DNA of 64,000 nucleotides from an uncultured Actinomycetes bacterium (GCA_963783865.1 CAWAPD010000003.1:485009-549008), one strand, 5' to 3'; shown: positions 317 through 62,046, numbered from the stretch's first letter. Notes: generated from the sequence alone by a model not told the origin. Numbers and translations are program-made.

Positions 317-403
317 TGGTGGGCGAGGCGGGATTTGAACCCGCAAGCTCTTGCGAGCACTAGGTCCTGAACCTAGCGTGTCTGCCAGTTTCACCACTCG
401 CCC
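317..403 (-). tRNA. tRNA-Leu (anticodon CAG), 87 nt with long variable arm, CCA encoded
   Basis: Manual fold: acceptor GGGCGAG/CTCGCCC, anticodon stem CTAGG/CCTAG with loop TTCAGGA (CAG), variable-arm hairpin GCTC-GCAA-GAGC, T-arm GCGGG-TTCAAAT-CCCGC, discriminator A + CCA. Confidence 0.85.
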
Positions 404-476: not shown

Positions 477-2189
477 ATGGCCCCCGCATCCAACAGCCGA
501 GCCCCGCTGTACAGCGCCTGGCGCGACCGCTACGAGGTCGTCGGCACGATCGGTTCGGGGGGCTTCGCGACCGTCTACGAGGCGGTCGACCGCCAGCTCG
601 GCGGCGAGGTCGCGCTCAAGGTCGTCGAGGACCGGCCGGCCCTGTCGGCGCGGGTCGTGCGCGAGGTCGAGGCGGCTCGCTCGCTCGACCACCCAGCGAT
701 CGTCAAGCTGCTCGACTTCTTCGGCGACGGGCGGCGCAGCTTCCTGGTGTGGGAGCTCGTGCGCGGCGACCCGCTCGACGCGCTCGCCGACGAGCTCGGC
801 GAGCGCGACATGGTCGCCGCCGCCGCCGAGTTGTGCGACGCCCTCGCCTACGCCCACAGCCGCGGCATCGTGCACCGCGACATCAAGCCCGAGAACGTGA
901 TGATCGACGAGGACGGCGCCGTGAAGGTCATGGACTTCGGCATCGCCCGCATGATCGACGCCGAGACGCTCACCGCCGAGGGCGAGATGCTGGGCACGGT
1001 CGCCTACATGTCGCCCGAGCAGGCGGCGGGGCGCCGCATCGGACCGCCGACCGACGTGTACTCGGCCGGCGTCGTGCTCTACGAGCTGCTGGCCGGCGAG
1101 AACCCGCTGCGCGGCGCCACCGCCGCCGAGACGATCGGCAACGTGCTGGCCGGGCGCATCCCGCTGCTGGAGGAGCTGCGTCCCGACCTGCCGCGCGAGC
1201 TGACCGACCTGGTCGACGTGGCCGTCTCGCCCGATCCTCTCGAGCGCCCGACGGCGGTCGAGATGGGGGAGGCGCTGCGCGCGGTCGAGGACCGCCTGGG
1301 CGGCGCCCGCTTCCGCGCCCAGCGCCTCTTGGCGCCCTTCCGCCGTCTCGAGGTGGTCGGCGCCCGGGCGCTCGGCGCGGCGATCGCCTTCGCCTGCCTG
1401 GTCGCCCTGTGTCTGACGCTGCCCGGCTACCCGTCGAGCTGGATCCTGCCGATCGCCGCCGTGGCCGCGGTCGCGTGGCTCGCCGCGCCGCCGCTCGGCC
1501 TGGCATGGACGCTCGGGGCGATGCTGTTCCCCCTGTTCAACGTGTCGTCGGGCGTCGGGTTCGCGGCGCTGCTCGGGTTCGTGCCGCTGATGATGGTCGG
1601 GCGCCGCTGGCCGCTCGAGGTGGCGTGGGCCGGTCTCGCGGTGCTGCTGGTGCCCGTCTACGCGGTGCTCCTGGCGCCGGTCGGCGCGGCCGCGTTCGGG
1701 CGCCGCCGCGGGCCGCTCACGGCGGCCTGGGCGGCGGCGGTCGTGTTCGTCTGTCTCACCGTGTCGGGCGCGCGGGGAGCGCCCTTCACGGGCTTCTCCC
1801 CGCGCGCCCACCTCGGCGCCCAGCTCGGCGCCGCGGTCAGCCCGCTGACGGTGATCACGCGCGTGGGCGCGGTCGTGCTCTCGGCGCCCTGCCTGCTGCA
1901 GATGGCGGCGTGGGCCGGACTCGCGTTCGCCTTCGCGGTGTTGCTGCGGCTCGACCGGCTGGAGCTGCGGCTGTGGGTCTGGGCGGTCGCGTTCGCCTGC
2001 CTGTTCGCCGGCTATCGGCTCGTGCCGCGGCTCGCCTGGGAACGCACCGCGCCGCCGCACGCCCTGGTGCTCGCCGTGACCGTCGCCGCGGTCCTGTCGC
2101 TGGCGGTCGTGGCCCTCGCGCCACCCCTCCAGCCGAGGCTGGAGGGACCGCCGGCCGGGCTCGCCGAGCCCGACGACGACGTGTGGTAG
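477..2189 (+). CDS. Ser/Thr protein kinase (Hanks-type) with C-terminal polytopic (about 8-10 TM) membrane domain
   Basis: Kinase motifs GSGGFATVY, VALK, HRDIKPEN, DFG, GTVAYMSPE; ATG 477 after GGAG RBS (ORF-track start 351 would overlap the tRNA); C-terminal about 300 aa is a run of hydrophobic helices. Confidence 0.85.
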   Translation: MAPASNSRAPLYSAWRDRYEVVGTIGSGGFATVYEAVDRQLGGEVALKVVEDRPALSARVVREVEAARSLDHPAIVKLLDFFGDGRRSFLVWELVRGDPLDALADELGERDMVAAAAELCDALAYAHSRGIVHRDIKPENVMIDEDGAVKVMDFGIARMIDAETLTAEGEMLGTVAYMSPEQAAGRRIGPPTDVYSAGVVLYELLAGENPLRGATAAETIGNVLAGRIPLLEELRPDLPRELTDLVDVAVSPDPLERPTAVEMGEALRAVEDRLGGARFRAQRLLAPFRRLEVVGARALGAAIAFACLVALCLTLPGYPSSWILPIAAVAAVAWLAAPPLGLAWTLGAMLFPLFNVSSGVGFAALLGFVPLMMVGRRWPLEVAWAGLAVLLVPVYAVLLAPVGAAAFGRRRGPLTAAWAAAVVFVCLTVSGARGAPFTGFSPRAHLGAQLGAAVSPLTVITRVGAVVLSAPCLLQMAAWAGLAFAFAVLLRLDRLELRLWVWAVAFACLFAGYRLVPRLAWERTAPPHALVLAVTVAAVLSLAVVALAPPLQPRLEGPPAGLAEPDDDVW

Positions 2190-2253: not shown

Positions 2254-3093
2254 GTGAATCCCCTCAAGTCCATCGAAAAGCGTATGGAGAAGACGGTCGA
2301 GAGCCTCTTCGGCCGCGCCTTCAAGGCCAGCGTCCAGCCGGTCGAGCTGGCCCACAAGCTGGCCAAGGAGATGGGCGACCACAAGACCGTCAGCGTCTCC
2401 CGCGTCTACGTCCCCAACGTCTACGAGGTCTTCCTCTCGCCGCCCGACTACGAGCAGCTGCACTCGTTCGAAGCCACGCTGGCCGACGAACTGTCGAGCT
2501 ACCTGGTCGCCTACGCGAAGCGAGAGGGCTGGACCCTGGTCGCCAAGCCGACCGTTGCGCTGCACGCCGACGCCGACCTGTCGCTGGGCGAGTTCGGCAT
2601 CGCCGCGCACACGACGGCGCCCGACGCGACCGGCGCGGGCGCGGGTGCGGCGGCCCTCGCGCCGCTGGTGCCGCCACCAGACAAGCGGCTCTCACAGACC
2701 CTGGTGTTCGGTCCGCCCGACGTGGCCGCCGTGCCGCCCGCGCCCCCCGTGGCCGTCCCCGGCCCCGGCCCGGCGGTCCCGCCGCCCTTCGCCCCCGCCG
2801 CGCCCGGACGCCTCTGCGCCGTGCTGCGCGGCCCCGGCATCGAGTCGGTGGTGGACGGCGACGTTGCCGTCATCGGGCGCAGCAAGCAGTGCGACGTCGT
2901 CGTCGCCGACCCCAACGTCTCCCGCCGTCACGCCGAGATCCGGCGGCAGGACGACGGCTTCGTGGTCGTCGACCTGCAGTCGACCAACGGCATCCGCGTG
3001 AACGGGCGGGAGGTGAAGCGCGCCGCCCTCGCCGACGGCGACCGGTTGCAAGTGGGGACCACGCGTCTCCGCTTCGAGACCCGGCCATGCTAG
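2254..3093 (+). CDS. fhaA: FhaA-like protein (DUF3662 N-terminal domain + C-terminal FHA domain)
   Basis: N-terminus MNPLKSIEKRMEKTVESLFGRAFK typical of FhaA; C-terminal FHA signature GRSKQCDVVVADPNVSRRHAEI...STNGIRVNGREV; GTG start. Confidence 0.85.
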   Translation: MNPLKSIEKRMEKTVESLFGRAFKASVQPVELAHKLAKEMGDHKTVSVSRVYVPNVYEVFLSPPDYEQLHSFEATLADELSSYLVAYAKREGWTLVAKPTVALHADADLSLGEFGIAAHTTAPDATGAGAGAAALAPLVPPPDKRLSQTLVFGPPDVAAVPPAPPVAVPGPGPAVPPPFAPAAPGRLCAVLRGPGIESVVDGDVAVIGRSKQCDVVVADPNVSRRHAEIRRQDDGFVVVDLQSTNGIRVNGREVKRAALADGDRLQVGTTRLRFETRPC

Positions 3094-3629
3094 ACGTCGT
3101 CCTGTTCGCCCTGAAGATCGGGTTCCTGGTCCTGCTGGTCCTGTTCGTCGTGCTCGTGATCCGGCGGACGGTGACCGACGTGCGCGCGGGGGCCAAGCCC
3201 TCTGAGCAAGCGCCCGACGTGGCGATCCCCGAGGCGGCCGTCGTGCCGGCGGCCACGCCGGCCGAGCGCCGCCAGCGCCGCCAGCGCCGCCACGCCGAGC
3301 GCACGATGCCCGGCGAGTCGCTCGACCTGATGGCCCACATCGACCCGCGCCTGGTCGTGGTCTCCAGCCCGGTGCTCGAGGAGGGCGAGGTCGTCAAGCT
3401 CGACGGCTGGGTGATGTTCGGGCGGGCGCCGGCCTCGGACGTGGTCCTCGACGACCCCTTCGTGTCGCAGACCCACGCGCGGGTGACGCCCCGCGGGCAG
3501 CTCCACTTCGTCGAGGACCTGGGCAGCACGAACGGCACCTTCCTGAACGGGCGCGAGGTGCTCGAGGCGCAGCTCCTGATCGACAGCGAGCTGCGCATCG
3601 GCGAGACGGTCTTCCGGTACGAGGAGTGA
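3087..3629 (+). CDS. fhaB: FHA-domain membrane protein (FhaB/FipA-like)
   Basis: ATG overlapping fhaA stop (ATGCTAG); N-terminal TM helix, C-terminal FHA (GRAPASDVVLDDPFVSQTHARV...STNGTFLNGREV). Confidence 0.8.
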   Translation: MLDVVLFALKIGFLVLLVLFVVLVIRRTVTDVRAGAKPSEQAPDVAIPEAAVVPAATPAERRQRRQRRHAERTMPGESLDLMAHIDPRLVVVSSPVLEEGEVVKLDGWVMFGRAPASDVVLDDPFVSQTHARVTPRGQLHFVEDLGSTNGTFLNGREVLEAQLLIDSELRIGETVFRYEE

Positions 3630-3636
3630 CGCGCGC

Positions 3637-4914
3637 GTGACGCTCGTCGCCCGCCATGCGGTGCTGACCGACGTCGGGCTGCTGCGGTCCGGCAACGAGG
3701 ACGCCTACGCGGCGGAGCCGCCGCTGTTCGCCGTGGCCGACGGCATGGGCGGCGCCAAGGCCGGCGAGGTCGCTTCGGCCCTGGCGCTCGAGACGCTGGC
3801 CGCCCGCCTCGCCGCCGGCGACGGCCTGGTCGCCGCCGCCGCGGCGGCCAACGCGGCGGTGTTCGAACGCGCGTCCGCCGATCCCGGCCAGAGCGGCATG
3901 GGCACGACCCTGACCGCCCTGCGCCTGACCGACACCTCGGCCGAGGCCGTCCAGGTCGGCGACAGCCGGCTCTACCGCCTGCGCGACGGCGCCCTCCAGC
4001 AGCTCACCGAGGACCACTCGGTGGTCGGGGAGTGGCTGCGGGCCGGAGCGATCAGCGCCGACGAGGCGCACGCCAGCAAGTATCGCAACGTGCTGACCCG
4101 GGCACTGGGCACCGAGCCGGCGGTCGAGATCGACGACCTGACGCTGGAGGTGCGCGCCGGCGACTTGCTGCTGCTGTGCAGCGATGGGCTCTCGTCGATG
4201 CTGACCGACGACGAGATCGCGGCCGTGCTGGTCGCCCAGACGCCCGACGTAGAGGCCTGCGCGCGCCGGCTCGTCCACGAGGCCAAGAACCACGGCGGGC
4301 ACGACAACATCACCGTGATCATCGTGGCCATCGACGAGGTCGAGCCGGGAGCCGGGGAGCCGGAGGACGAGGGGGCGGGCGCGGCCGCCGCCGGGCCGGC
4401 CGAGGAGGCGGGCGCGATCACCGAGGACATCCCCCTGCCGGCCGGCGGCGCGGCGGCCGCGCCCGAAGAGGACAAGGGCAAGGCCGGGGACGCGGCCGAA
4501 GCGGCCGGACCTACCGGCGACACCGGGCCAGGCACCGGCGACGGTGTCGAGGCCGGCGCGACGCTGGACGAGCACGACGCCAAGGACGACGGGGCGACGG
4601 CGACCGGCCGGCGCCGGCGCACGATCACGATCGTCGCCTTGGTCGCCGTCGCCCTCGTGCTCGTCGGCCTGGTCGCCGGCATCCTCGTGGTCGACAACAT
4701 GTACTTCGTCGGTGTCGACCAGGGCATGGTCAGCGTCTACCGCGGCGCGCCTTACGAGGTCGGCGGCGTCAAGCTCTACCGGGTGTACCTGCGCAGCACC
4801 GTGCCCATCGGGAACGTGCGAGCCGACCTGCAACAGCGCGTGCTCGAGCGCCACGTCACGAGCAAGGACGACGCGCTCCGGCTGGTGCGTGAAGTCCAGG
4901 GGATATCGCCGTGA
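3637..4914 (+). CDS. pstP: PP2C-family Ser/Thr phosphatase PstP with C-terminal TM segment
   Basis: GNEDAYAA, ADGMGGAKAGEVAS, DSRLYRLRDG, LCSDGLS motifs of PPM phosphatases; TM helix TITIVALVAVALVLVGLVAGILVV; GTG start after GAGGAG. Confidence 0.9.
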   Translation: MTLVARHAVLTDVGLLRSGNEDAYAAEPPLFAVADGMGGAKAGEVASALALETLAARLAAGDGLVAAAAAANAAVFERASADPGQSGMGTTLTALRLTDTSAEAVQVGDSRLYRLRDGALQQLTEDHSVVGEWLRAGAISADEAHASKYRNVLTRALGTEPAVEIDDLTLEVRAGDLLLLCSDGLSSMLTDDEIAAVLVAQTPDVEACARRLVHEAKNHGGHDNITVIIVAIDEVEPGAGEPEDEGAGAAAAGPAEEAGAITEDIPLPAGGAAAAPEEDKGKAGDAAEAAGPTGDTGPGTGDGVEAGATLDEHDAKDDGATATGRRRRTITIVALVAVALVLVGLVAGILVVDNMYFVGVDQGMVSVYRGAPYEVGGVKLYRVYLRSTVPIGNVRADLQQRVLERHVTSKDDALRLVREVQGISP

Positions 4915-6248
4915 GCCGCCGCAACCGCGAGCTGCTGCTCCTGCTGCTGGTCGGCGTCATGTCGACCTCGATCTACGTCTCGGTCTACGCCGCCCGCTTC
5001 CACGAGATCGGCCGCCTGTCGCTCGTCTACGGCGGTGTGTATCTGGCGGTGTTCGCCGTCCTGCATATCGTGGTCCGCTGGCGCCTGCCCGAGGCCGACC
5101 CCTACCTGCTGCCGATCACGGCGCTGCTCACGGCCGTCGGCCTGACCGAGATCTACCGCATCGAGCCCCACCTCGCCCGTCTGCAGGGTCAGTGGCTGCT
5201 GGTGGGGGCGGCGCTGTTCGCGGCGACGATCTTCGTCGTCCGCGACCCGCGCCGCCTCGACGACTACCGCTACGTCATCGGCGGCGTCGGGCTGCTCCTG
5301 TTGCTGGTGACCATCGTGCTCGGCACCAACGTCAACGGCGCCCGCCTCTGGATCCGCGTCGCCGGCTTCTCGATCCAGCCGTCCGAGCTCGCCAAGCTGG
5401 CGATCGTCATCTTCCTGGCCGGCTACCTGAACGACGTCAAGGAGATGCTGTCGGTGCCGACCGCCCGCATCGCCGGCCTGCGGATCCCGGCGCTCAAGTA
5501 CTTCGGGCCGCTCGTCGTGATGTGGGTCCTGTCGCTCGCGCTGCTGATCTTCATGAAGGACTTCGGCATGTCGCTGCTGTTCCTGGCGACCTTCGTCGCC
5601 ATGCTCTACATGGCCACGGCGCGGGTCGTCTACGTGATCACCGGGGCGGCGCTATTCGCCCTCGGCGCCGGCGCCGCCTACCAGTACGTCGCGCACGTGC
5701 ACGAGCGCTTCGCGATCTGGATCGACCCCTGGTCCACGGCGACGACGAGCGGCTACCAGCTGCTGCAGTCGCTGTTCGCGATCGCCGACGGCGGCGTGCT
5801 CGGGCCGGGCGTCGGGCGCGGCTACCTGCTGTTCGCCGACCGCACGCCGGTGGTCCCCGACCTGCCGACCGACTTCATCTTCGCCGCCGTCGCCAACGAG
5901 CTCGGGCTGGCCGGCGCCGTCGGCCTGATCGTGCTCTACCTGCTCTTCTGCTGGCGCGGCTTCCACATCGCCGTCTGGGCGACCGATGGCTTCTCGAAGC
6001 TCCTGGCCGGCGGTCTGGCGACCGTTTTCGGCCTGCAGACCGTCATCATCCTGGGCGGCGTGACGCGACTGATCCCCCTGACCGGGGTGACGCTGCCGTT
6101 CGTGAGCTACGGCGGCAGCTCCATCACCGCGAACCTCGTCCTCGTCGCCCTGCTGCTGCTGGTCTCTCACCGGACGAACGCCCGGCGGGGCGCCGGCGGC
6201 GACACGCAGCACCTCGTCGCCGGGGAGATGGAAGTGGGGACAGCGTGA
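4911..6248 (+). CDS. rodA: FtsW/RodA/SpoVE family cell-wall polymerase (SEDS)
   Basis: Multi-TM protein; GTGA start/stop overlap with pstP; position in conserved cluster between pstP and pbpA. Confidence 0.9.
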   Translation: MSRRNRELLLLLLVGVMSTSIYVSVYAARFHEIGRLSLVYGGVYLAVFAVLHIVVRWRLPEADPYLLPITALLTAVGLTEIYRIEPHLARLQGQWLLVGAALFAATIFVVRDPRRLDDYRYVIGGVGLLLLLVTIVLGTNVNGARLWIRVAGFSIQPSELAKLAIVIFLAGYLNDVKEMLSVPTARIAGLRIPALKYFGPLVVMWVLSLALLIFMKDFGMSLLFLATFVAMLYMATARVVYVITGAALFALGAGAAYQYVAHVHERFAIWIDPWSTATTSGYQLLQSLFAIADGGVLGPGVGRGYLLFADRTPVVPDLPTDFIFAAVANELGLAGAVGLIVLYLLFCWRGFHIAVWATDGFSKLLAGGLATVFGLQTVIILGGVTRLIPLTGVTLPFVSYGGSSITANLVLVALLLLVSHRTNARRGAGGDTQHLVAGEMEVGTA

Positions 6249-7681
6249 ACCGGGCCATCGGACGGATCTTCATCGTCGGCATGGTGCTGTTCGCGGCGCT
6301 GATGGTCAACGTCGTCTACCTGCAGGTGTTCGCCGCTCGCGGCTTGCAGCGGAACCCCGACAACCACCGTTCGATCGCCGCCGGGCTGCGCGTCAAGCGC
6401 GGGCCGATCGTCGCCTGGGACGGCACGGTGATCGCCGCCTCGCAGAAGAAGTCCGGGTTCTACTACCGGACGTACCCGAGCGGCGCCTTCGCGCCCCAGA
6501 CGATCGGCTACGACAGCGTGCGCTACGGCCTCAGCGGCCTCGAGTCGTCGTACGACGCGTGGCTCACGGGGACCTCGACCGTGAACGGCTGGCAGGGGTT
6601 GGTGGACCGCGCCCTCGGCCGGCGCCCGCACGGGGACACCGTGCGCACGACGCTGGTGCCGGCGGTGCAGGACGTGGCCCAGCAGGCGCTCGTCGGGCAG
6701 CATGGCGCCATCGTCGCGCTCGATCCGACGACCGGCGCCGTGATCGCCATGGCGTCGTCCCCGACCTACTCGCCGGCCTCGCTGGAGACCCAGTGGCGGA
6801 CGCTGGCCAGGGACCCGTCGGCGCCCCTGTTCGACCGCGCCACGCAGAGCCTTCAGCCCCCGGGCTCGTCGTTCAAGGTGGTCACCGCCACCGCCGGCCT
6901 CGGGCTCGGCAAGGTCACGCCGCTGACGCCGTTCATCGACACCGGCGTTTACTACGTGGGCGGCGGCAAGATCGTGAACTACCACCACGAGGTCTTCGGC
7001 CCCAACACGCTGACCCGGGCGCTGACCCTGTCGATCAACACCACGTTCGGCAAGGTGGGCAACCTGATCGGGCAGGGCGGCCTCGTGGACCAGATGACCG
7101 CCTACGGCTTCTACGCGCGCCCGCCGCTCGACCTGCCGCCCGGGCAGGTGGCGGCCTCCGGCCGCTACGCGGGCGGCAGGCTGCTCTCACCGGGCGCGCC
7201 GATGGACGCGCTGCACGTGGCCGCGGCGGCGATCGGCCAGGAGAACGTCCTGGCGACGCCGCTGCAGATGGCCCTCGTGGCCGCCGGCGTCGCCGACGGC
7301 GGTACGGTCATGCGGCCGTATCTGGTGCAGGACGTGAAGACGCCGGCCGGCAAGGTCGTGGTGCAGGCGGCGCCGCAGCAGTGGCAGGACGCGATGAGCC
7401 CCCAGACGGCGGCCACGCTCAACACGATGATGCAGCAGGTGGTCAACGCCGGCACCGGGACCGCCGCCGCCCTGTCGGGCATCCAGGTCGCCGGCAAGAC
7501 GGGCACGGCCGAGAAGCCGCCGGCCAACATCGGCTGGTTCATCGCCTTCGCGCCCGCCGTCGCGCCCAAGGTCGCGGTGGCGGTCATGATCGAGAACACG
7601 CCGCTCACGGGGGGCGACGTCGCGGCGCCGCTGGCGGCGCAGGTGATCAGCGCCGCCCTGACCCAGCAGAGCCTGCCGTGA
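6245..7681 (+). CDS. pbpA: penicillin-binding protein, transpeptidase (PbpA-like class B PBP)
   Basis: SSFK (SxxK), KTGTAE (KTG) motifs; N-terminal TM anchor; GTGA overlap with rodA; the ORF-track 4544..7681 frame is real only from 6245. Confidence 0.9.
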   Translation: MNRAIGRIFIVGMVLFAALMVNVVYLQVFAARGLQRNPDNHRSIAAGLRVKRGPIVAWDGTVIAASQKKSGFYYRTYPSGAFAPQTIGYDSVRYGLSGLESSYDAWLTGTSTVNGWQGLVDRALGRRPHGDTVRTTLVPAVQDVAQQALVGQHGAIVALDPTTGAVIAMASSPTYSPASLETQWRTLARDPSAPLFDRATQSLQPPGSSFKVVTATAGLGLGKVTPLTPFIDTGVYYVGGGKIVNYHHEVFGPNTLTRALTLSINTTFGKVGNLIGQGGLVDQMTAYGFYARPPLDLPPGQVAASGRYAGGRLLSPGAPMDALHVAAAAIGQENVLATPLQMALVAAGVADGGTVMRPYLVQDVKTPAGKVVVQAAPQQWQDAMSPQTAATLNTMMQQVVNAGTGTAAALSGIQVAGKTGTAEKPPANIGWFIAFAPAVAPKVAVAVMIENTPLTGGDVAAPLAAQVISAALTQQSLP

Positions 7682-7722: not shown

Positions 7723-9600
7723 ATGACTGACGGATTCGACCGCGGCGAACTGATCGACGGGCGCTACCGGGTGCTCAACCGCCTGGGTATCGGCGGCATG
7801 GCCGACGTTTACCTGTGCGAGGACCTCACCCTCGGTCGGCGCGTCGCGCTCAAGGTCCTGCTCTCGCGCTACGCTGGCGACGGGCAGTTCGTCGAGCGGT
7901 TCCGCCGCGAAGCTCAGGCGGCGGCCCAGATCAACCACCCCAACATCGTCAACGTCTACGACTGGGGCATGGTCGGCGAGACGTACTACATCGCCATGGA
8001 GTACGTCGAGGGTGAGACGCTGAAGGAGCGGATCCGCCGGCAGGGCAAGCTGGCCCCCGGCGAGGCCGTACGGATCACCCTCGAGCTGTTGGCCGCGCTC
8101 GACGTGGCCCACGCGGCCGGCATCGTCCACCGCGACGTCAAGTCGCAGAACATCCTGATGGACGCCGCCGGCACGGCCAAGGTGACCGACTTCGGCATCG
8201 CCCGTGCCGGCGACTCGCAGATGACCGAGGCCGGGTCGATCCTGGGCACCGCCCAGTACCTGGCGCCCGAGCAGGCCAAGGGCGAGCCGGTCGACGCGCG
8301 CTCCGACCTGTACTCGGTCGGCGTCGTGCTCTACGAGATGCTGACCGGTCGCGTGCCGTTTCAGGGGGACAGCGCCGTCACCGTGGCGCTCAAGCACGTG
8401 AACGACGTGCCGCCCGAGCCGGCCGAACTGGTGCCGGGGCTGCCCTACTCGCTGAACCAGATCGTCCTGAAGGCGCTGGCCAAGGACCCCGAGCGCCGCT
8501 ATGACAGCGCGTCGAGCTTCGCCGCCGACCTGAACAACGCGCGCACGGGCGGGCCGTTGATCGCGGCCGCCTACGACCCCTCCGAAGAGGCCACGCAGGT
8601 GCAGAAGGCGGCGCCGCTCGCCGCCGAGGGGCAGACGCGGGTGATGCCGAGGGCGGCGCCGCCTTCTCCGCCCGAACGCGGGCGCCGCCGCCCGGTCTGG
8701 CCCTGGCTGCTGCTCGTGGCCTTCGTGGTCGTCGCCGCGATCGTCGCGGCGCTGCTCCTCAAGTCGTGCGCGTCGAGCGCGGTGAAGGTGCCGTCGGTCG
8801 TCGGCCAGAGCGAGGCCGCGGCGCGGACGGCGCTCGAGAACGACGGCTTCAAGGTCAAAGCCGTCGACACGTACTCCGACCAGTTCTCCGGCGGGTTCGT
8901 CGCCGCGCAGGACCCGGCGGGGGGGTCGAGCCTCGCCAAGGACGGCACCGTGACGATCTCGGTCAGCCGTGGGCCCGTGCACACGCAGCTGTCCGACCTG
9001 AGCGGCATGACGCCCGCCCAGGTCCAGGACTACCTCAAGCAGTTCGGGCTCGTCGGCAAGCAGCTGTCGGGGTCGTCGAACGCGGTCCCCAAGGGACACG
9101 TGTACAAGCAGAACCCGCCGGCCGGCACCACGGTTGCGCGCGGCGACACCGTGAAGTACTGGGTCAGCGCCGGCAAGCCGCAGGTCGCGGTGCCCGACGT
9201 GAGCGGCGAGACGCAGAGCCAGGCGACGGCCGACATCCAGGCAGCCGGCCTGCAGATCGGCTCCATCAGCCAGGCGCCGAGCGGCTCGGTGCCCGCCGGC
9301 AGCGTGATCAGCCAGAGCCCGCCGGCAGGACAGCTGGTCGACCAGGGCACCCCGGTGTCCATCACGGTCAGCAGCGGCACCCCGACGCCGAGCCCGAGCC
9401 CGTCGATGGTCGCGATCCCCGACGTCCTCGGGCTCCCCGAGGCCGAGGCCGAGACGAAGCTCACCGACGCGGGGTTCATCGTCGACCCGCCCAAGCAGGT
9501 GGGCAGCATCCAGCCGCCCGGCACGGTGGTGAAGGTCACGCCCGACGTCGGCACGCTGGCGCCGACGGGCTCGTCGGTCACGATCTGGGTAGCGAAGTAG
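7723..9600 (+). CDS. pknB: Ser/Thr protein kinase PknB with four extracellular PASTA domains
   Basis: Kinase motifs ([27 protein letters not shown]), single TM helix, four about 65-aa PASTA repeats; ATG after GAGGTG. Confidence 0.95.
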
Positions 9601-12317: not shown

Positions 12318-12505
12318 GGGTACCTCCTGTCCGTGGCCGTCGACGACGACCTTCCCCTCTCTCGTCGCGGAGCGTATGTGAGGGGATGGTGGAGGGTCAA
12401 CGGGCGGGGGGCGGGGGGCCCGCGGCCCGCCGCCCCCCGCCCGTTGACAGCGCCTCGCTTCGCGCATATCTTCAGGCGCCCAGGCAGCGAAAGGATTCCG
12501 TCCAG

Positions 12506-13768
12506 GTGGACGCCGACCCCGGCCGATTAGAACTCTCCGACCTCGAATCGATGACGGTGGTCGACGCCGCCGGCCACGAGGTCGGCGAGCTGGCCGACGT
12601 CCTGGCCGCCCTCTCGCCCGCGCCGCCCGCCGTGACCGCCTTCATCGTCGAACGCGACGACGAGCAGCTGCGCGCCGACTGGGACCAGGTGCGGGCGATC
12701 GACGTCGACGACGAGCGGCTCACGCTGTCGGTCGCCGGCGACGTGCTGGCGCCGGCCTCGCTCTCCGAAGAGGAGATCGGGCTCGTCGACTCGGTGCTCG
12801 ACAAGCAGGTGCTCGACGTGGAGCGGCGCAAGTTCGTACGCGTCCAGGACGTGGCCATCGAGCCCTTCGAGGACCGTCTGATCGTGGCCGGCGTCGACAC
12901 CAGCAGCGGCGCCGTCATGCGGCGCATGGGTCTGGGGTTCCTGGGCCGCGGCCTGCGCCGCCGCCCCGGCGACTTCGTGCCCTGGGACGACGTCAACCTC
13001 ATCTCCGTACGGCTCTCGCGGGCCAACTTCGTCGAGGCGTTCACCGAGATAGCGGAGCTGCATCCGGCCGACCTGGCCGACATCGTCAGCCAGGTCGGCC
13101 CGCGGGAGCGCGCCGCCGTGCTGGCGGCCCTGAACGCGCCGCTGGCCGCCGACACCCTGCAGGAGATGGACCCCGAGCTGTGCACCGGCGCGCTGGCCGA
13201 GATGCCGGCCCACCGGGCCGCCGCCGTACTGCGCCACATCGACCCCGACGAGGCCGCCGACATGCTGGCCGAGCTGCCCGACGAGGTGGCCGAGCAGCTC
13301 CTCGACCTCCTGCCACCCGACGAGGCCGGCGCGCTGCGGGGCCTGGCCAGCCACCCGGAGCACTCGGCGGGGGCGCTGATGACGACGGATCTCGTCGCCC
13401 TGCCGGCCGCCATGACCGCCGACGCCGCCCTGGCGCGGATCAAAGCGGAGCGTCCCGAGCCGGTCGCCCTGGCCGTGATCCTGCTCCTCGACCGCGACGA
13501 GCGGCTCTGCGGCACGGTCTCGCTGGCCGAGCTCGTGCTGGCCGACCCCGGGCAGGCCCTGACCGGGATCTGCTCCGAGGACGCACCGCAGGTCGGTCCC
13601 GACGCCGACGAGCAGGAGGTCGGCCGTCTGATGACCAAGTACAACCTGCTGGCGCTCCCGGTGACCGACGCCGACGGCCGGGTGCTGGGCGTGGTGACGC
13701 TCGACGACGCGGTCGACGCGATCGTGCCCGACGAGTGGAAGCGGCGACTGCCGCGGCTCTTCCGCTAG
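12506..13768 (+). CDS. PRC-barrel + MgtE N-terminal + CBS-pair domain protein (MgtE cytosolic-domain homolog lacking the membrane pore)
   Basis: MgtE_N-like acidic helices (MLAELPDEVAEQLLDLLPPDEAGAL) followed by two CBS motifs; no TM region; GTG start after AAGGA. Confidence 0.6.
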   Translation: MDADPGRLELSDLESMTVVDAAGHEVGELADVLAALSPAPPAVTAFIVERDDEQLRADWDQVRAIDVDDERLTLSVAGDVLAPASLSEEEIGLVDSVLDKQVLDVERRKFVRVQDVAIEPFEDRLIVAGVDTSSGAVMRRMGLGFLGRGLRRRPGDFVPWDDVNLISVRLSRANFVEAFTEIAELHPADLADIVSQVGPRERAAVLAALNAPLAADTLQEMDPELCTGALAEMPAHRAAAVLRHIDPDEAADMLAELPDEVAEQLLDLLPPDEAGALRGLASHPEHSAGALMTTDLVALPAAMTADAALARIKAERPEPVALAVILLLDRDERLCGTVSLAELVLADPGQALTGICSEDAPQVGPDADEQEVGRLMTKYNLLALPVTDADGRVLGVVTLDDAVDAIVPDEWKRRLPRLFR

Positions 13769-49879: not shown

Positions 49880-51256
49880 ATGGACGCGAGGGGTGAGGGT
49901 CCCAAGAAGACCACGGGCGGGACGGCGGACGACGCCCTGCGCGAGCGGGCGGTCGAACGCATCGCCCAGCAGGCCCGGGCCAACCTCCGCAACCTGATCA
50001 GCGACGATTCGCTGGCGCTGCCGTCGCTGAGCGCCATCGCCGACGACATCCGCCTCGAGCTCGAGAAGCGGGGCACGGTGGCGATCCTCTACGTCGGCCT
50101 CAAACGCTACGGACGCCTGGAGCGCGTGTTCGGCTGGCGGATCACCTCGGAGATCCTCGACGCCTGCGCCGGCATCCTGCAAGAGATGGTGGGCTCGACC
50201 CTGCGACGGCTCGACGTGCTCGCCGACTTCACGCTCTCGGACAACGCCTTCATCGTGGCCCTTTCGCCGCCGCGCAAGACCAAGGAGATCGCCGGCGACG
50301 ACCTCATGGCCATCAGCCGCCGCGTCTACGAGCGGCTGCAGTCCACCCTGCTGAACGACCTCAAGCCGGGGATCTTCGACCGCGTCCACCCGTTCGTCAC
50401 CACGGCCGTGCTGCGCGCGGCCGACGATCTGACCTTCGAGCAGTCGCTGCAGAACGGCGTGACCGCCGCCATGCAGGCGGTCGAAGAGGAGTCGATCCTC
50501 TACGACGACGAGCTCGAGCGCACCCTGGCAGACGCCATCGCCGACCACGGGCTCGAGCCGCTGTTCGAGGCAGTGGTCGACGTGAACGAGCGCCGCTGCC
50601 TCGGGTACCGCACGAGCGTGCGGGGACCGTTCTACTCGCCCTTGCGCCTGCCCGACGTCCTCGACGAGGTCTCGCGGCGCTCGGCGCTGCTCACGAGCTA
50701 TGGGATCGAAGCGCGCGAGGCGGCCGTGACGCGGGCGGTCGGCCTGGGCGCCGAGGACCTGCTCTTCCTCGGCTGCGCCGCGGCGGAGCTGCCCGGCGCG
50801 GCCGCCCTGGCGCTGAGCGAGTTCTACTCGCTGAACAAGGGCCTCGTGCCGCAGCACGTGGTGTTCGAGGTGCAGGCCGGCGACCTGGTCGCCAACGCCG
50901 CCTCCGTGCTGCGCGTGCTGTCCAGCGTGCGCGAGATGGGGTTCCCGGTCTGCATGGCCGGTGTCGGCGCCGGGCTCACGGCCTTCGACCTGATCGCCCA
51001 GGCCCGGCCCGACTTCCTGATCGCCGACCCCGTGATCACGCTGGGCGCCGCATCCGACCCGACCCTGATCGACACCATGCAGCTGCTGCTGCGCTACGCC
51101 GCCCGCATCGACGCGCGCCTGATCGCGCCCGAGGTCGGCGACGCGAAGCAGCTCAAGGCGCTGCGAGGGGTCGGCGTGGAGCTCGTCTGCGGAGACGTGC
51201 TGGGCCGGCCCGACACGCGGCCGCCGAGGATCGATCCCGAGAAGCTGAAACTGTAG
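49880..51256 (+). CDS. degenerate GGDEF-EAL tandem-domain protein (catalytic motifs lost; putative c-di-GMP receptor/scaffold)
   Basis: GGDEF-fold region with LSDNAF in place of GGEEF; C-terminal EAL-fold region lacking the EAL, DDFGTG and KID signatures. Confidence 0.55.
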   Translation: MDARGEGPKKTTGGTADDALRERAVERIAQQARANLRNLISDDSLALPSLSAIADDIRLELEKRGTVAILYVGLKRYGRLERVFGWRITSEILDACAGILQEMVGSTLRRLDVLADFTLSDNAFIVALSPPRKTKEIAGDDLMAISRRVYERLQSTLLNDLKPGIFDRVHPFVTTAVLRAADDLTFEQSLQNGVTAAMQAVEEESILYDDELERTLADAIADHGLEPLFEAVVDVNERRCLGYRTSVRGPFYSPLRLPDVLDEVSRRSALLTSYGIEAREAAVTRAVGLGAEDLLFLGCAAAELPGAAALALSEFYSLNKGLVPQHVVFEVQAGDLVANAASVLRVLSSVREMGFPVCMAGVGAGLTAFDLIAQARPDFLIADPVITLGAASDPTLIDTMQLLLRYAARIDARLIAPEVGDAKQLKALRGVGVELVCGDVLGRPDTRPPRIDPEKLKL

Positions 51257-51315: not shown

Positions 51316-52218
51316 TCAGGCCGAGAGCGTCGTCGCGAGCGGTCCGTTCACGCTCGCGTCGGCGTGCAGCGACACCCGGTTGCGCCCGCGCGACTTGGAC
51401 TGGTAGAGGGCCTCGTCGGCCTGCTCGATGAACAGCGTCTCGTCGGCCGAGCCCCGGCGGTAGGTGGCCACGCCGGCGCTGACGGTCACGAACACCTTGT
51501 CGCCGCCGCGCTGCTCCAGCCCGATCGTCTCGACGGCGTGACGCACGCGCTCGGCGAGCTCGTACCCGTCGCCGCCGTCGCCGCGGATCAGCAGCGCGAA
51601 CTCCTCGCCGCCGTAGCGCGCCGCCATGTCGGCCTCGCGCACGACCGACTGCAGGGTCAGGCCGATGCGCCGCAGCAGGTCGTTGCCGGACTCATGGCCG
51701 TGGCGGTCGTTGAACGCCTTGAAGTGGTCGACGTCGAACATGATCAGGGCCAGGTCGCCGCCGTAGCGGTCGGCCTTGGTGGTCTCGTTGTGCAGGTAGT
51801 CGACGAACGTGCCGTAGTTGTACAGGCCGGTCAGCCGGTCGGTGAGCGACGAGGCCTGCAGCACGCTCTGGAGCTGGTGGTGGTTGCGTTGCACGCGGCC
51901 CAGCACCAGGCCGGCGATGCTGAACATGACGAGGCCGATGATCGCCTGCCGGGTGGTCGCCGGGTCGGCGCCGTGCCGGGCGACGAAGTAGCCGACGAAC
52001 ACGGCGCCGACCCAGCCGCTCACGAGCAGGCTGCCGAGCTCGAAGAAGAAGACGGCGGCGAGGATCAGCGGGAAGATGAACAACGGCCACAGGTACAGGT
52101 CGCCGGTGCCGAACACGACCACCGACACGGCGACCAGCGCCGCCACCAGCAGGACGATGCGCTGCGGCGTGACGCGCCGTTCGGTGAGGTCGGGGTGAAG
52201 AGCCCCGGGTTGGTGCAT
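51316..52218 (-). CDS. membrane-anchored diguanylate cyclase (GGDEF, catalytically intact)
   Basis: N-terminal TM helices then DRLTGLYNYGTF, RYGGEEFALL, I-site-like RxxD absent; ATG 52218 after GGAGGA. Confidence 0.8.
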   Translation of the reverse strand: MHQPGALHPDLTERRVTPQRIVLLVAALVAVSVVVFGTGDLYLWPLFIFPLILAAVFFFELGSLLVSGWVGAVFVGYFVARHGADPATTRQAIIGLVMFSIAGLVLGRVQRNHHQLQSVLQASSLTDRLTGLYNYGTFVDYLHNETTKADRYGGDLALIMFDVDHFKAFNDRHGHESGNDLLRRIGLTLQSVVREADMAARYGGEEFALLIRGDGGDGYELAERVRHAVETIGLEQRGGDKVFVTVSAGVATYRRGSADETLFIEQADEALYQSKSRGRNRVSLHADASVNGPLATTLSA

Positions 52219-52383
52219 GGTCCTCCGCTCTCGTGGCTTCTTCCTACCTACGACGTGCTCGTAGGCAATCCTGCGCTCGAAGGCCACCGTCGCCAGGCGA
52301 GGCTACACCTGCGTCCTGGGGGGTCGGCGGACGGCGTCGCAGGTTCGGGGGAGCGTCCGGGCGGTGAAGTAGAATCCGGACCG

Positions 52384-53181: not shown

Positions 53182-55941
<2,760 letters not shown>

Positions 55942-56718: not shown

Positions 56719-56923
56719 CGCCGCGGAGCGGGCGCTCGCCGCGCGAACTTGTGCGTTCTTGGGCACCTCCGTGACACGCCCGCCCGGCGGCGATACGCTC
56801 GCCGTCGGCGGCCGCCGTGGCCGCCGTGACTCCGTTGCCGGTGCCGCCGGACCCGCGGCAGGTCCGGGGGTGTGATCCCCGCACCGGCGGGCGGTCGTGA
56901 ACGCGGATCACGTGGAGGTGTGC

Positions 56924-58324
56924 GTGGAGTCGAAGATCCGTACCCGTATGGGCGACGGCGCCCTCGTCGAGACGACCCCGTCCGAGATCAGAGCCGATCT
57001 CGAGGCAGGCACTCAGCAGGCCGCCAAGCGCTCGAAGTACCCCGAGCTCACCAGCGACGAGCTCGACCACCTGCTCGACATCTTCGCGTCGAACAGCCGG
57101 GTGACCGGCGTCGACATCGGCGACGAGGTCGTCCTCAGCTACGACGGCTGCGGCAGCCAGGACATGGGGACCCGTATCAACGACCTCCAGGTCTACGAGC
57201 AGATCCTCTGCGCCGACTCGCTCGAGATGTACAGCCACGACTACTCGTACAAGCCGTGCAAGCCCCTCGTGCCTTACGAGCAGGCGATCATGCGCCAGGC
57301 GCAGTGGCTGCTGACGGCGCCCTGCGGCTACGGGGCGATGAGCGACCTCGGGCGCTACACCGTGCCCGACGGCCCGGTCGTCAACTGGTCGCAGCTGCTG
57401 CCGCTGGGCCAGATCGACGAGGCTCGGGCGGCCCAGGAAGAGGCCGTCGAGCTCGCCGCCGACGACATGGTGTTCGTGGCCGAGGGCATGGTCGAGGCCG
57501 GCGTCGACCACATCGACTTCGACACGGCCGGAGCGGCCGGCGACGCCGACTTCCTGGCCACGCTCAAGGCGATCGAGCGGCTGCGCGCCGCCTATCCCGA
57601 CTTGGGCATCCAGATCGGCATGGCCGGCGAGTTCGTGCTCGGCATGCACGGCGAGCTCGAGTACGACGGCAGGCGCCTGGCCGGCATGTGGCCGGTGCAG
57701 CAGATGGAGGCGGCGGCCAAGGCCGGCGTCACCATCTTCGGGCCGGCCGTCAACACCAACACCGGCAAGTCGATCGCCTGGAACGTGGCCCGCGTGCTGA
57801 CCATCTGCAAGCCGGTCTGCGAGCAGTCCACCGTGCCGGTGCACGTGAACGGCGGGATGGGCGTGGGCGGCGTGCCGATGCACATCACGCCGCCCGGCGA
57901 CGCGACGACCAGAGCCTCGCGGGCCTGCGTCGACATCCTGCGCCTCGACGGGTTGTAGGTGGGCGCCGGTGACGTCTACGGCCAGGCGACGGCGCACAGT
58001 GTCGCCTCGAGCATGGGCGGTATCCGCACTGCGGGAGATCTCGTAGCCAGGATGCAGTTCACCCGGGGCATGAGGAACATCGAGGCCAAGCGGTACGTGG
58101 CCGAGAAGCTGGGCGTGTCGGCGCTCGACCTGGTCGACCCGGTCGTGATGCTCGACGTGCGCAAGGAGTTCGGCCTGGGGTCGATGTACGAGTCCGAGAT
58201 CTCGGGACCCGACGACCCGCTCGCCATCGAGGCCAAGTTCAACATCTCGAAGGTGCTCGACGTCCCCATCAACTGCGTCGAGCGTTTCAAGGAGAAGAGC
58301 GGCCGGGCGGCGGCCCGGGCGTAG
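56924..58324 (+). CDS. mtbB: dimethylamine:corrinoid methyltransferase MtbB homolog (Dimeth_Pyl family), copy 1, with in-frame TAG (putative pyrrolysine codon) at 57956-57958
   Basis: Conserved MtbB blocks on both sides of the TAG: TRMGDG, YGAMSDLGRYTVPDGP, DFDTAGAAGD, GMAGEFVLGMHGELEYDG, FGPAVNTNTGKSIAWNVARV, GMGVGGVPM, then DGL-TAG-VGAGD...[19 protein letters not shown]...EAKRYVAEKLGV; the ORF track splits it into 56897..57958 and 57959..58324; GGAGG RBS before GTG 56924. Confidence 0.75.
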
Positions 58325-60659: not shown

Positions 60660-62046
60660 TTGGAACCGAAGATCCCTACCCGCATGGGTGACGGGTCGCT
60701 CGTCGAGATGACCCGGTCCGAGATCGAGGCCGATCTCCTGGAGGGCACCCGGCAGGCGGCGAAGCGGGCCAAGTGCGACCCGCTCACGCAGGACGAGCTC
60801 GATCACCTTCTCGACATCTACGCCTCGGCGGCGCGCTTCACGGCGGTCGACATCGGCGACGAGGTCGTGATGAGCAACGACGGCACTGGGACCAAGCACA
60901 TCGGCAACCGGGTGCAGGACCTGCAGACCTACGAGCAGGCGCTCGGCGTCGACATGGTCGAGCTGTGGCAGATCGACTACTCCTACAAGGCGATCAAGCC
61001 CAACATCGCGCACGAGAAGCAGTCGATGAAGATCGCCCAGGCGCTGCTCACCAACCCGGTGCAGTACGGGGCGATGCCCGACCTCGGGCGCTACTCCAAG
61101 CCCGACGGGCCGATCGACAACTGGTCGGAGCTGCTGCCGCTGATGAAGATCGACGAGGCCCGCGTCGCCCAGGTCGAGGCGGCGAAGATGCTCGTCGAAG
61201 ACATCGACTTCGTCGCCGGGCACATGGTCGAGGCGGGCACCGACGGCATCGACTTCGACACGACGGGGGCGGCCGGCGACGCCGACTTCTTCGCCGGGCT
61301 CACCGCCTGCCGACGGCTGCGCGAGAAGTACCCGTGGCTGGGCATCGAGATCGGCATGGCGAGCGAGTTCGTGCTCGGCATGCACGGCGAGCTCGAGTTC
61401 GACGGCGAGCGGCTGGCCGGCATGTGGCCCAAGGACCAGGTGCGGATGGTCCAGCAGGCCGGGGCCTCGATCTACGGGCCGGCCGTCAACATCAACACCG
61501 GCAAGTCGACCGCCTGGAACATCGCCCGGGCGATCACCTTCATCAAGCCCGCGATGGCGGTCGCCGAGATCCCCGTGCACGTGAACGTCGGCATGGGCGT
61601 CGGCGGCGTGCCGACGTGCGTCTACCCGCCGGCCGACGCGACCTCGCGGGCCAGCAAGGCCTTCGTCGAGATCCTGAAGATCGACGGCTACTAGGTGGGG
61701 ACGGGCGACCCCCTCGGCATGGAGTCGGCGCACACGCAGGCTTCGGGCATGGGCGGAATGCGGACCGCGGGAGATCTCGTGGCTCGCATGCAGATGACCC
61801 GGAGGATGCGCCTCAAGGAGGCCAAGCAGTACGTGGCCGGCAAGCTGGGCTGCGGCGTGCGCGACCTGTCCGACCCGACGGCGATGGAGCAGATCAGGCT
61901 CGAGAAGGGCCTCGGCACGCTGCCGTTCACCTCGTCGGTGCACCCAGGCCGAGGCCGGCATGATGGAGGCCAAGTTCAACATCGCCAAGATGCTCGGCGT
62001 CGAGATCAACTGCGTCGAGCGCTTCAAGGAGCGCGCCGGGCTGTAG
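60660..62046 (+). pseudogene. mtbB: MtbB homolog copy 2: in-frame TAG at 61692-61694 at the same alignment position as copy 1, plus an apparent +1 frameshift near 61945-61960 (possible pseudogene or sequencing error)
   Basis: [39 protein letters not shown] conserved around TAG; C-terminal MMEAKFNIAKMLGVEINCVERFKERAGL is recovered only in the +1 frame from about 61960; the in-frame reading continues spuriously to 62804. Confidence 0.55.

Follow-up and report, generated by a model that had tools for sequence, protein, structure and literature searches.

The fhaA–pknB gene cluster of Actinomycetota is the central hub of Ser/Thr phosphorylation in cell-wall growth and division, and in Mycobacterium tuberculosis (Mtb) its locus is a drug target; to our knowledge nearly everything known about it comes from Mycobacteriales and Corynebacterium. 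The 64-kb stretch of DNA analysed here, from an uncultured Actinomycetes bacterium (GCA_963783865.1, CAWAPD010000003.1:485009-549008; hereafter the window), carries this cluster with a different arrangement of kinase genes. The original prediction described an extra Ser/Thr kinase with a large polytopic membrane domain upstream of fhaA, together with an empty position between pbpA and pknB, where pknA would be expected. This arrangement raises the question of whether the gene is a PknA that has moved and, if not, what kind of protein has taken the first place in the operon and what its membrane domain might do there.

The kinase gene and its operon

The open reading frame begins with an ATG at position 477, ends with a stop codon at 2187–2189 and encodes a product of 570 aa. 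A GGAG motif a few bases 5′ of the ATG supports this start, as does the length of a 97%-identical homologue (P0001), which is also 570 aa. The Pfam kinase model PF00069 scores 186.9 bits against a cutoff of 31.7, and the translation contains the full series of catalytic motifs: GSGGFA, VALK, REVEAA with the αC Glu, HRDIKPEN, DFG, an activation-loop TLT and SPE. Across the family, the Gly loop, Lys, αC Glu, HRD, Asn, DFG, activation-loop Thr and APE are invariant (alignment A3). Judged by its translation, the product is a Hanks-type Ser/Thr kinase with intact catalytic motifs, in agreement with the original prediction.

The surrounding genes are listed in Table 1. As predicted, the kinase gene lies between tRNA-Leu(CAG) and fhaA, in the same operon as the genes for FhaA, FhaB, PstP, RodA and PbpA, and the pknA position is empty: pbpA and pknB lie 41 bp apart, which leaves no room for pknA. 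Nor is there a pknA elsewhere in the locus, since a tblastn search of the 64-kb window found no third kinase domain beyond those of the polytopic kinase and PknB. The empty position is unexceptional in light of the literature, in which conservation across all Actinobacteria is described only for the pstP–rodA–pbpA–PASTA-kinase linkage (PMC6554272), whereas pknAB is described for the corynebacterial/mycobacterial cluster (PMC3296230).

Table 1. Features of the kinase gene, its product and the neighbouring operon (positions in the window)
Feature	Position	Strand	Basis or remark
tRNA-Leu(CAG), conserved divergent neighbour of the kinase gene	317..403	-	ARAGORN; Rfam tRNA 55 bits
Hanks-type Ser/Thr kinase gene with polytopic membrane tail	477..2189	+	570 aa; ORF and translation
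Catalytic kinase domain, aa 19-263	531..1265	+	Pfam Pkinase, E 6e-55
Arg-rich juxtamembrane linker, aa ~264-296, predicted cytoplasmic	1266..1364	+	mean 6.7 K+R, 29 members
Probable S-component-like six-helix core, aa ~286-431, boundaries inferred	1332..1769	+	
Whole polytopic membrane domain, aa ~297-548	1365..2120	+	8-10 membrane helices, predicted N-in/C-in
LPGYP motif, predicted outer end of membrane helix 1	1419..1433	+	family-wide (L/F)P(F/A)YP
fhaA (FhaA_N + FHA), 64 bp 3′ of kinase	2254..3093	+	Pfam FhaA_N 1.8e-35, FHA 4.4e-21
fhaB/fipA (N-terminal TM + FHA)	3087..3629	+	Pfam FHA; NCBIfam FhaB_Rv0019c 111 bits, under the curated cutoff of 125
pstP (PP2C phosphatase, C-terminal TM segment)	3637..4914	+	Pfam PP2C_2, PP2C, SpoIIE; translation
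rodA/ftsW (SEDS glycosyltransferase)	4911..6248	+	Pfam FTSW_RODA_SPOVE 5.9e-74
pbpA (class B PBP)	6245..7681	+	Pfam PBP_dimer_2 + Transpeptidase
pknB (PASTA kinase, four PASTA repeats), directly after pbpA	7723..9600	+	NCBIfam PknB_PASTA_kin 707 bits (cutoff 450)

The order kinase–fhaA–fhaB–pstP–rodA–pbpA–PASTA kinase is identical in seven further loci. Three of these come from relatives at 52–59% identity (L001, L002 and L003); the others are a low-GC Subteraquimicrobiales-type locus (L010), an Actinomycetota MAG (L011; GCA_023489275.1), Ca. Aquicultor secundus (L013) and Ca. Oleimmundimicrobium (L014; GCA_030651595.1). The tRNA-Leu(CAG) gene lies just 5′ of the kinase on the opposite strand in all four of the loci scanned for it (L001, L003, L010 and L011). 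Since the same order recurs in seven further loci from two classes, Thermoleophilia and Ca. Aquicultoria, the gene is better regarded as a fixed first cistron than as an occasional extra. On this gene order, the kinase gene is a fixed first cistron of the operon in at least two actinobacterial classes. The synteny comparison suggested with the original prediction thus bears out the location upstream of fhaA, but the word "extra" proves misleading. Further 5′, the genes for a DUF4446 protein, PheA (PDT) and SerS are also common to the loci.

In L003, L011 and L014 the stop codon of the kinase gene overlaps the beginning of fhaA, and in L010 only 4 nt lie between the two; this spacing suggests that they share one transcript. 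The corresponding gap in the window is 64 bp, and no intrinsic terminator was found in it; a scan of positions 250–2400 for promoter and terminator consensus sequences was empty, a result that is uninformative at 72% GC.

Conservation of the family and the question of PknA

With the whole protein as query, more than 120 full-length homologues of 550–603 aa were recovered, with 52–97% identity and 85–100% query coverage. By source annotation, which supplies all taxon names used here for the family, the members are Thermoleophilia MAGs and Candidatus Aquicultoria (Ca. Aquicultor secundus, Ca. Oleimmundimicrobium and Ca. Subteraquimicrobiales). With the 97%-identical P0001 set aside, the tails of the homologues are 40–51% identical to that of the window protein and the kinase domains 59–65%. 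An alignment of 31 tails (A1) contains 22 invariant positions, which are mostly Pro, Gly, Trp and Tyr, together with Gln and Arg. Judged by this conservation, the protein belongs to a conserved family and is not a one-off.

The tail appears to be confined to this architecture. An exhaustive search of 1.84 billion representatives with a tail-profile HMM found only 107 clusters at E ≤ 1e-3, and all 10 of the long distant matches tested have an N-terminal Pkinase domain and a tail at residues ~280–570. The existence of a stand-alone, kinase-less membrane domain found no support, as the three short matches checked were fragments: P0147 is an incomplete version of a 584-aa protein, P0154 comes from a contig whose genes are fragmented and P0166 keeps part of the kinase domain. 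So far as the tested matches show, the membrane domain does not occur apart from this kinase. A search of genome contigs with a single full-length protein returned unrelated kinases only, from Myxococcota, Acidobacteriota and others.

Two observations could be taken to mean that the tail is a spurious reading frame or a degenerating remnant of no significance: high-GC DNA yields many long spurious ORFs, and a tail-only word-index search of a 5.8-billion-protein database was empty, a likely cause being the Ala/Leu-rich words of the tail. We consider the chance of this to be negligible. The level of tail conservation in more than 120 proteins refutes it, and the tail is detectable in low-GC Aquicultoria homologues at E values of 1e-9 to 1e-13. 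In addition, the GC3 of the kinase ORF (0.94) is typical of real genes in the window (~72% GC), and AF2 predicts the structure of the tail with high confidence.

We propose the name fhaA-operon polytopic Ser/Thr kinase for a family defined by a Pkinase domain, a ~270-aa tail with (L/F)P(F/A)YP and a position immediately 5′ of fhaA, features that the window gene shares with those of the seven loci in two classes. A search of the literature on 5TMR-LYT and threonine kinases, on polytopic actinobacterial kinases and on Aquicultoria and Thermoleophilia kinases found no description of such a family. On this search the family is undescribed, and its tail domain is unannotated in Pfam and NCBIfam.

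The kinase domain is clearly related to those of PknA and the PASTA kinases, with which it shares the same Hanks fold, all motifs and the activation-loop Thr. Its closest solved relatives by PDB sequence match are Mtb PknA (153.1 bits), S. aureus Stk1 (152.5 bits) and Mtb PknB (135 bits). Given that Mtb PknA is nominally the top match, that the locus is otherwise without a second kinase and that the cluster of mycobacteria and corynebacteria typically has two kinases (PMC3296230), the gene could be a PknA orthologue that left its place at the pbpA–pknB junction, now heads the operon and carries a different membrane anchor. This origin is unlikely. The score against PknA is tied with that against Stk1 and lies far below the 238 bits with which the window's own PknB matches Mtb PknA (compared with 259 bits against Mtb PknB); the two kinase domains of the window are 40% identical to each other.

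A 269-column kinase alignment points in the same direction. It comprised the polytopic and PASTA kinases of five genomes, seven further family members and, as references, Mtb PknA, Mtb PknB and S. aureus Stk1. In this alignment, Mtb PknA is 44–47% identical to the PASTA kinases of those genomes but only 33–40% identical to the polytopic kinases. A neighbour-joining tree, a distance method applied here with one PknA reference, placed Mtb PknA inside the PknB/PASTA cluster and the polytopic kinases in separate deep clades outside it. The position of the gene differs as well, since PknA is encoded after pbpA, between pbpA and pknB, whereas the polytopic kinase is encoded at the operon 5′ end, upstream of fhaA and beside leuT. 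Finally, the tail is unrelated to the single TM segment of PknA. On the strength of the identities and the tree, we reject a relocated PknA; these comparisons give no support for orthology between the polytopic kinase and PknA.

The membrane tail and its predicted fold

The original prediction described the C-terminal region as polytopic, in contrast to the single TM segment with a PASTA or extracellular domain of PknB and PknA. This description holds: residues ~272–570, a domain of roughly 290 aa, contain 8–9 Kyte–Doolittle hydrophobic segments, for which we predict a membrane domain of 8–10 helices, and there is neither a PASTA match nor a short ectodomain. The PASTA-kinase model NF033483 matches the kinase part only, with 257.8 bits against a cutoff of 450. 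The region is also not a common annotated domain. The HMM search proposed with the original prediction yielded no Pfam or NCBIfam match to the window tail even at E ≤ 10; Pfam searches at E ≤ 10 with all 31 family tails gave scattered noise only, and a tail profile found 0 matches among PDB sequences.

The distribution of charge along the tail allows a tentative topology to be drawn. Across 29 members, K and R are enriched in the loops that follow helix 4 and the 29-residue hydrophobic segment 5, in the loop preceding helix 8, and at both ends of the tail, in the N-terminal linker and the C-terminus, while loops 1, 3 and 8 are uncharged. This spread favours an N-in/C-in arrangement with 8 TM helices and one helical hairpin. 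The Tyr and Pro of the LPGYP motif are invariant in the 31-tail alignment and at least 90% conserved in distant alignments, and the loop that bears the motif has no charged residues, which fits an extracytoplasmic location. More broadly, a predicted outer face fits both conserved motifs, (L/F)P(F/A)YP and FP.FN.S. In both AF2 models a long helix begins within the linker that precedes the tail, and the linker makes up its N-terminal portion. The linker is short and Thr-poor, unlike the juxtamembrane region of PknB, which recruits FhaA, and this speaks against the receptor-kinase model proposed below.

AF2 predicted about 11–12 helices for the tail (pLDDT 87.9, pTM 0.83). The structure-based search suggested with the original prediction gave a divided answer. 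Two predicted structures resemble the S-component fold (FolT, ThiT, BtuM, PanT, RibU, BioY and CbiM), but a Foldseek search of the tail model against the PDB returned nothing significant (best E 1.3). The aligned lengths, taken from predicted structures, are 125–150 residues, which fit only the first six helices; from this we infer an S-component-like core (tail residues ~15–160) followed by four further helices. We have moderate confidence in this core as a structural prediction, and the mapping of its six helices is uncertain in that the positive-inside analysis places a hairpin where an S-component has its transmembrane helix 5. A sequence-profile link between the tail and the S-component, 5TMR-LYT or MreD families was sought and not found.

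The S-component fold is known from several kinds of membrane protein. It is common to ECF S-components, to the membrane domains of LytS/YpdA/BtsS/KinB-type histidine kinases and to MreD; it binds ligands, and in the LytS/YpdA/BtsS histidine kinases it serves as a receptor domain (PMC11109136). Ser/Thr kinases are unmentioned in that work. The resemblance raises the prospect that the tail is a functional ECF-type S-component or a solitary transporter, and the protein a transporter–kinase fusion, a reading to which we attach very little probability. The tail has no detectable sequence relationship to FolT, ThiT, RibU, BioY, PanT, BtuM or CbiM: S-component families (e.g. PF12822) gave no match at E ≤ 10 for any of the 31 tails, in Pfam or NCBIfam, nor was there a PDB profile match. 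In contrast to S-components, it has four additional C-terminal helices, a fused kinase and no ECF module at the locus, as none of the eight loci contains EcfT or EcfA genes. An AxxxA motif in helix 1 might hint at docking to an ECF module, but we discarded this reading: the motif does not keep its register from one family member to the next, and helices rich in Ala contain it trivially.

The 5TMR-LYT proteins (LytS, YpdA, BtsS and KinB) follow a matching design principle in that a membrane domain of S-component fold serves as the input of a protein kinase (PMC11109136). Their output is a C-terminal GAF domain and histidine kinase, whereas in the polytopic kinase a Hanks Ser/Thr kinase lies N-terminal to the membrane domain. 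The tails did not match PF07694 (5TMR-LYT), and the fused output is Pkinase. Because its predicted fold is like that of the subunit with which vitamin transporters bind their ligands, the tail is probably a membrane-embedded sensor, and one that controls cell-wall synthesis in deep-branching Actinomycetota. Membrane-embedded sensing had been put forward in the original prediction; it is plausible, and the S-component resemblance of the two predicted structures strengthens it.

MreD offers a different precedent. In a cryo-EM structure of MreC–MreD, the S-component pocket of MreD binds a loop of MreC and so regulates RodA–PBP2, and the authors speculate on peptidoglycan-derived small ligands (PMC12625996). 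By analogy, the tail could be no ligand sensor but a module for membrane anchoring or docking, which would keep the kinase beside RodA–PbpA or other membrane partners through helix–helix contacts. We regard this as the main rival to a sensor role, though a rather improbable one. MreD itself is a stand-alone protein of ~160 aa encoded with mreC. Compared with it, the tail is about twice the size and is fused to a kinase, mreC is not adjacent, the tail did not match PF04093 (MreD), and MreD was absent from the 60 best structure matches of the second tail model.

In Mtb MviN/MurJ (Rv3910), a polytopic flippase carries a fused pseudokinase, through which FhaA is recruited. Like the polytopic kinase, this protein unites a polytopic membrane part with a domain of kinase fold and has a functional link to FhaA, but the order of its domains is reversed and its kinase domain is catalytically dead, whereas that of the polytopic kinase is intact. 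The kinase tail showed no similarity to MurJ or the MOP superfamily. MurJ/MviN and FhaA have both been mentioned as phosphoproteins linked to PstP (PMC6554272).

A proposed receptor kinase and its implications

Overall, we think it probable that these proteins form a family of receptor-type Hanks kinases in Thermoleophilia and Ca. Aquicultoria, in which a cytoplasmic kinase domain with intact catalytic motifs, a short Arg-rich linker and a membrane domain of 8–10 helices, the first six with a predicted S-component-like fold, are encoded by the first gene of this ancient operon. The membrane domain would act as an intramembrane or outer-leaflet receptor. In a pocket of the S-component type it would bind a small ligand, either hydrophobic or derived from the cell envelope; alternatively, as in the MreD–MreC complex, it would bind a partner membrane protein. 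Occupancy could alter the conformation or the oligomeric state of the protein and, with it, autophosphorylation of the activation loop. The active kinase would then phosphorylate the FHA proteins, the RodA–PbpA machinery or both, alongside PknB, and PstP would reverse these phosphorylations. In this way the polytopic kinase could take the role of the second kinase that PknA has in Mycobacteriales, without being orthologous to PknA.

The ligand, the substrates and the transcription of the gene as part of the operon are elements of this model that we infer. The lipid or cell-wall-intermediate ligand and the coupling to the FHA/PP2C circuit put forward in the original prediction are putative, and are based on gene order and fold resemblance. 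A bolder version of the model is possible but tentative: the protein could be the first Hanks-type Ser/Thr kinase with an S-component/MreD-like input, ancestral in the fhaA–pknB operon, that turns a membrane-embedded signal into Thr phosphorylation, the signal being a precursor (of peptidoglycan or lipid-linked) or else the condition of the RodA–PbpA complex, and that the crown Actinomycetes lost, with PknA taken up in its stead.

In summary, two deep-branching classes of Actinomycetota have a different, fixed second kinase at the operon 5′ end, with a large conserved intramembrane domain. This kinase offers a view of an ancestral or alternative wiring of the circuit, and its tail defines a domain family unannotated in current databases. 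If both the S-component-like fold and the sensor role are correct, a single transporter-derived receptor fold would feed histidine-kinase as well as Ser/Thr-kinase signalling, and the concept of the S-component "transceptor" would reach beyond two-component systems into Ser/Thr signalling. In that case the family would also provide a tractable route to the membrane-borne signal that controls cell-wall synthesis by SEDS–bPBP pairs.

Conserved neighborhood of the kinase locus

Synteny across Thermoleophilia and Aquicultoria also extends upstream of the tRNA-Leu gene, as seen in six of the relatives' loci (L001, L003, L010, L011, L013 and L014). The shared genes there encode a DUF4446 protein and a prephenate dehydratase (PDT and ACT domains), with a seryl-tRNA synthetase nearby in every such locus except L011, from an actinomycetotal metagenome-assembled genome. 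The gene directly preceding the tRNA in L001–L003, L010 and L014 encodes a protein of 334–367 aa without annotation, and window positions 1 to ~300 (minus strand) may hold the N-terminus of this gene.

Two broken sequences bear on the adjacency of the kinase gene and fhaA. The single ORF of P0133, a 545-aa protein matched by the kinase-tail profile search, combines part of the kinase, the membrane tail and part of FhaA_N, and in L012, a further relative's locus, the same gene set is present but broken into fragments. A reading of either as a real fusion is disfavored; both look like frameshifted assemblies, and they independently confirm the kinase–fhaA adjacency.

Within the conserved cluster, PstP measures only 249–275 aa in the Aquicultoria loci. 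The window's copy and those of the Thermoleophilia loci are 406–447 aa long and have both a C-terminal TM segment and an extended linker rich in Ala, Gly and Glu. Given these differences in length and C-terminal TM segment, the phosphatase is probably soluble in Aquicultoria and membrane-anchored in Thermoleophilia.

Coordinates of the features discussed
Feature	Locus	Position	Strand	Remark
Syntenic region upstream of tRNA-Leu	L001	7022-9783
	L003	6923-9816
	L010	2208-4843
	L011	6049-7414
	L013	3724-6459
	L014	1345-3977
pstP, long form	window	3637-4914
pstP, short form	L010	12947-13771
	L013	11880-12629
	L014	11946-12773
460-aa protein	window	12386-13768	+	MgtE_N, two CBS domains; weak N-terminal PRC-barrel match
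EAL-domain protein	window	49880-51256	+	convergent with GGDEF gene
GGDEF diguanylate cyclase	window	51316-52287	-	convergent with EAL gene
HAD hydrolase	window			beyond EAL/GGDEF pair
LigA, NAD-dependent DNA ligase	window	53791-55941		beyond EAL/GGDEF pair
mtbB copy 1 (dimethylamine methyltransferase)	window	56897-58324	+	Pfam Dimeth_Pyl
PYLIS_2 over mtbB copy 1	window	57956-58055		Rfam, 54.7 bits (gathering score 36)
mtbB copy 2 (dimethylamine methyltransferase)	window	60645-~62100	+	Pfam Dimeth_Pyl
PYLIS_2 over mtbB copy 2	window	61692-61791		Rfam, 61.2 bits (gathering score 36)

Other genes of the window

The EAL/GGDEF pair, the HAD hydrolase and LigA are ordinary content. A domain search of the 460-aa ORF found no MgtE membrane domain; its product may be either a stand-alone regulator or an MgtE-type Mg2+ transporter that has been split or truncated.

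Putative pyrrolysine decoding

Both mtbB genes carry an in-frame TAG that breaks the reading frame near positions 353–355 of the 463-position Dimeth_Pyl model, in the contexts LDGL*VGAGD and IDGY*VGTGD (asterisk, TAG), which we take to be pyrrolysine sites. In copy 2, the profile match past the TAG ends at position ~430. A literature search found no report of pyrrolysine decoding in Thermoleophilia. The presence of two TAG-interrupted mtbB genes, each overlaid by a PYLIS_2 element, suggests that the Thermoleophilia-like actinobacterium of the window decodes pyrrolysine.
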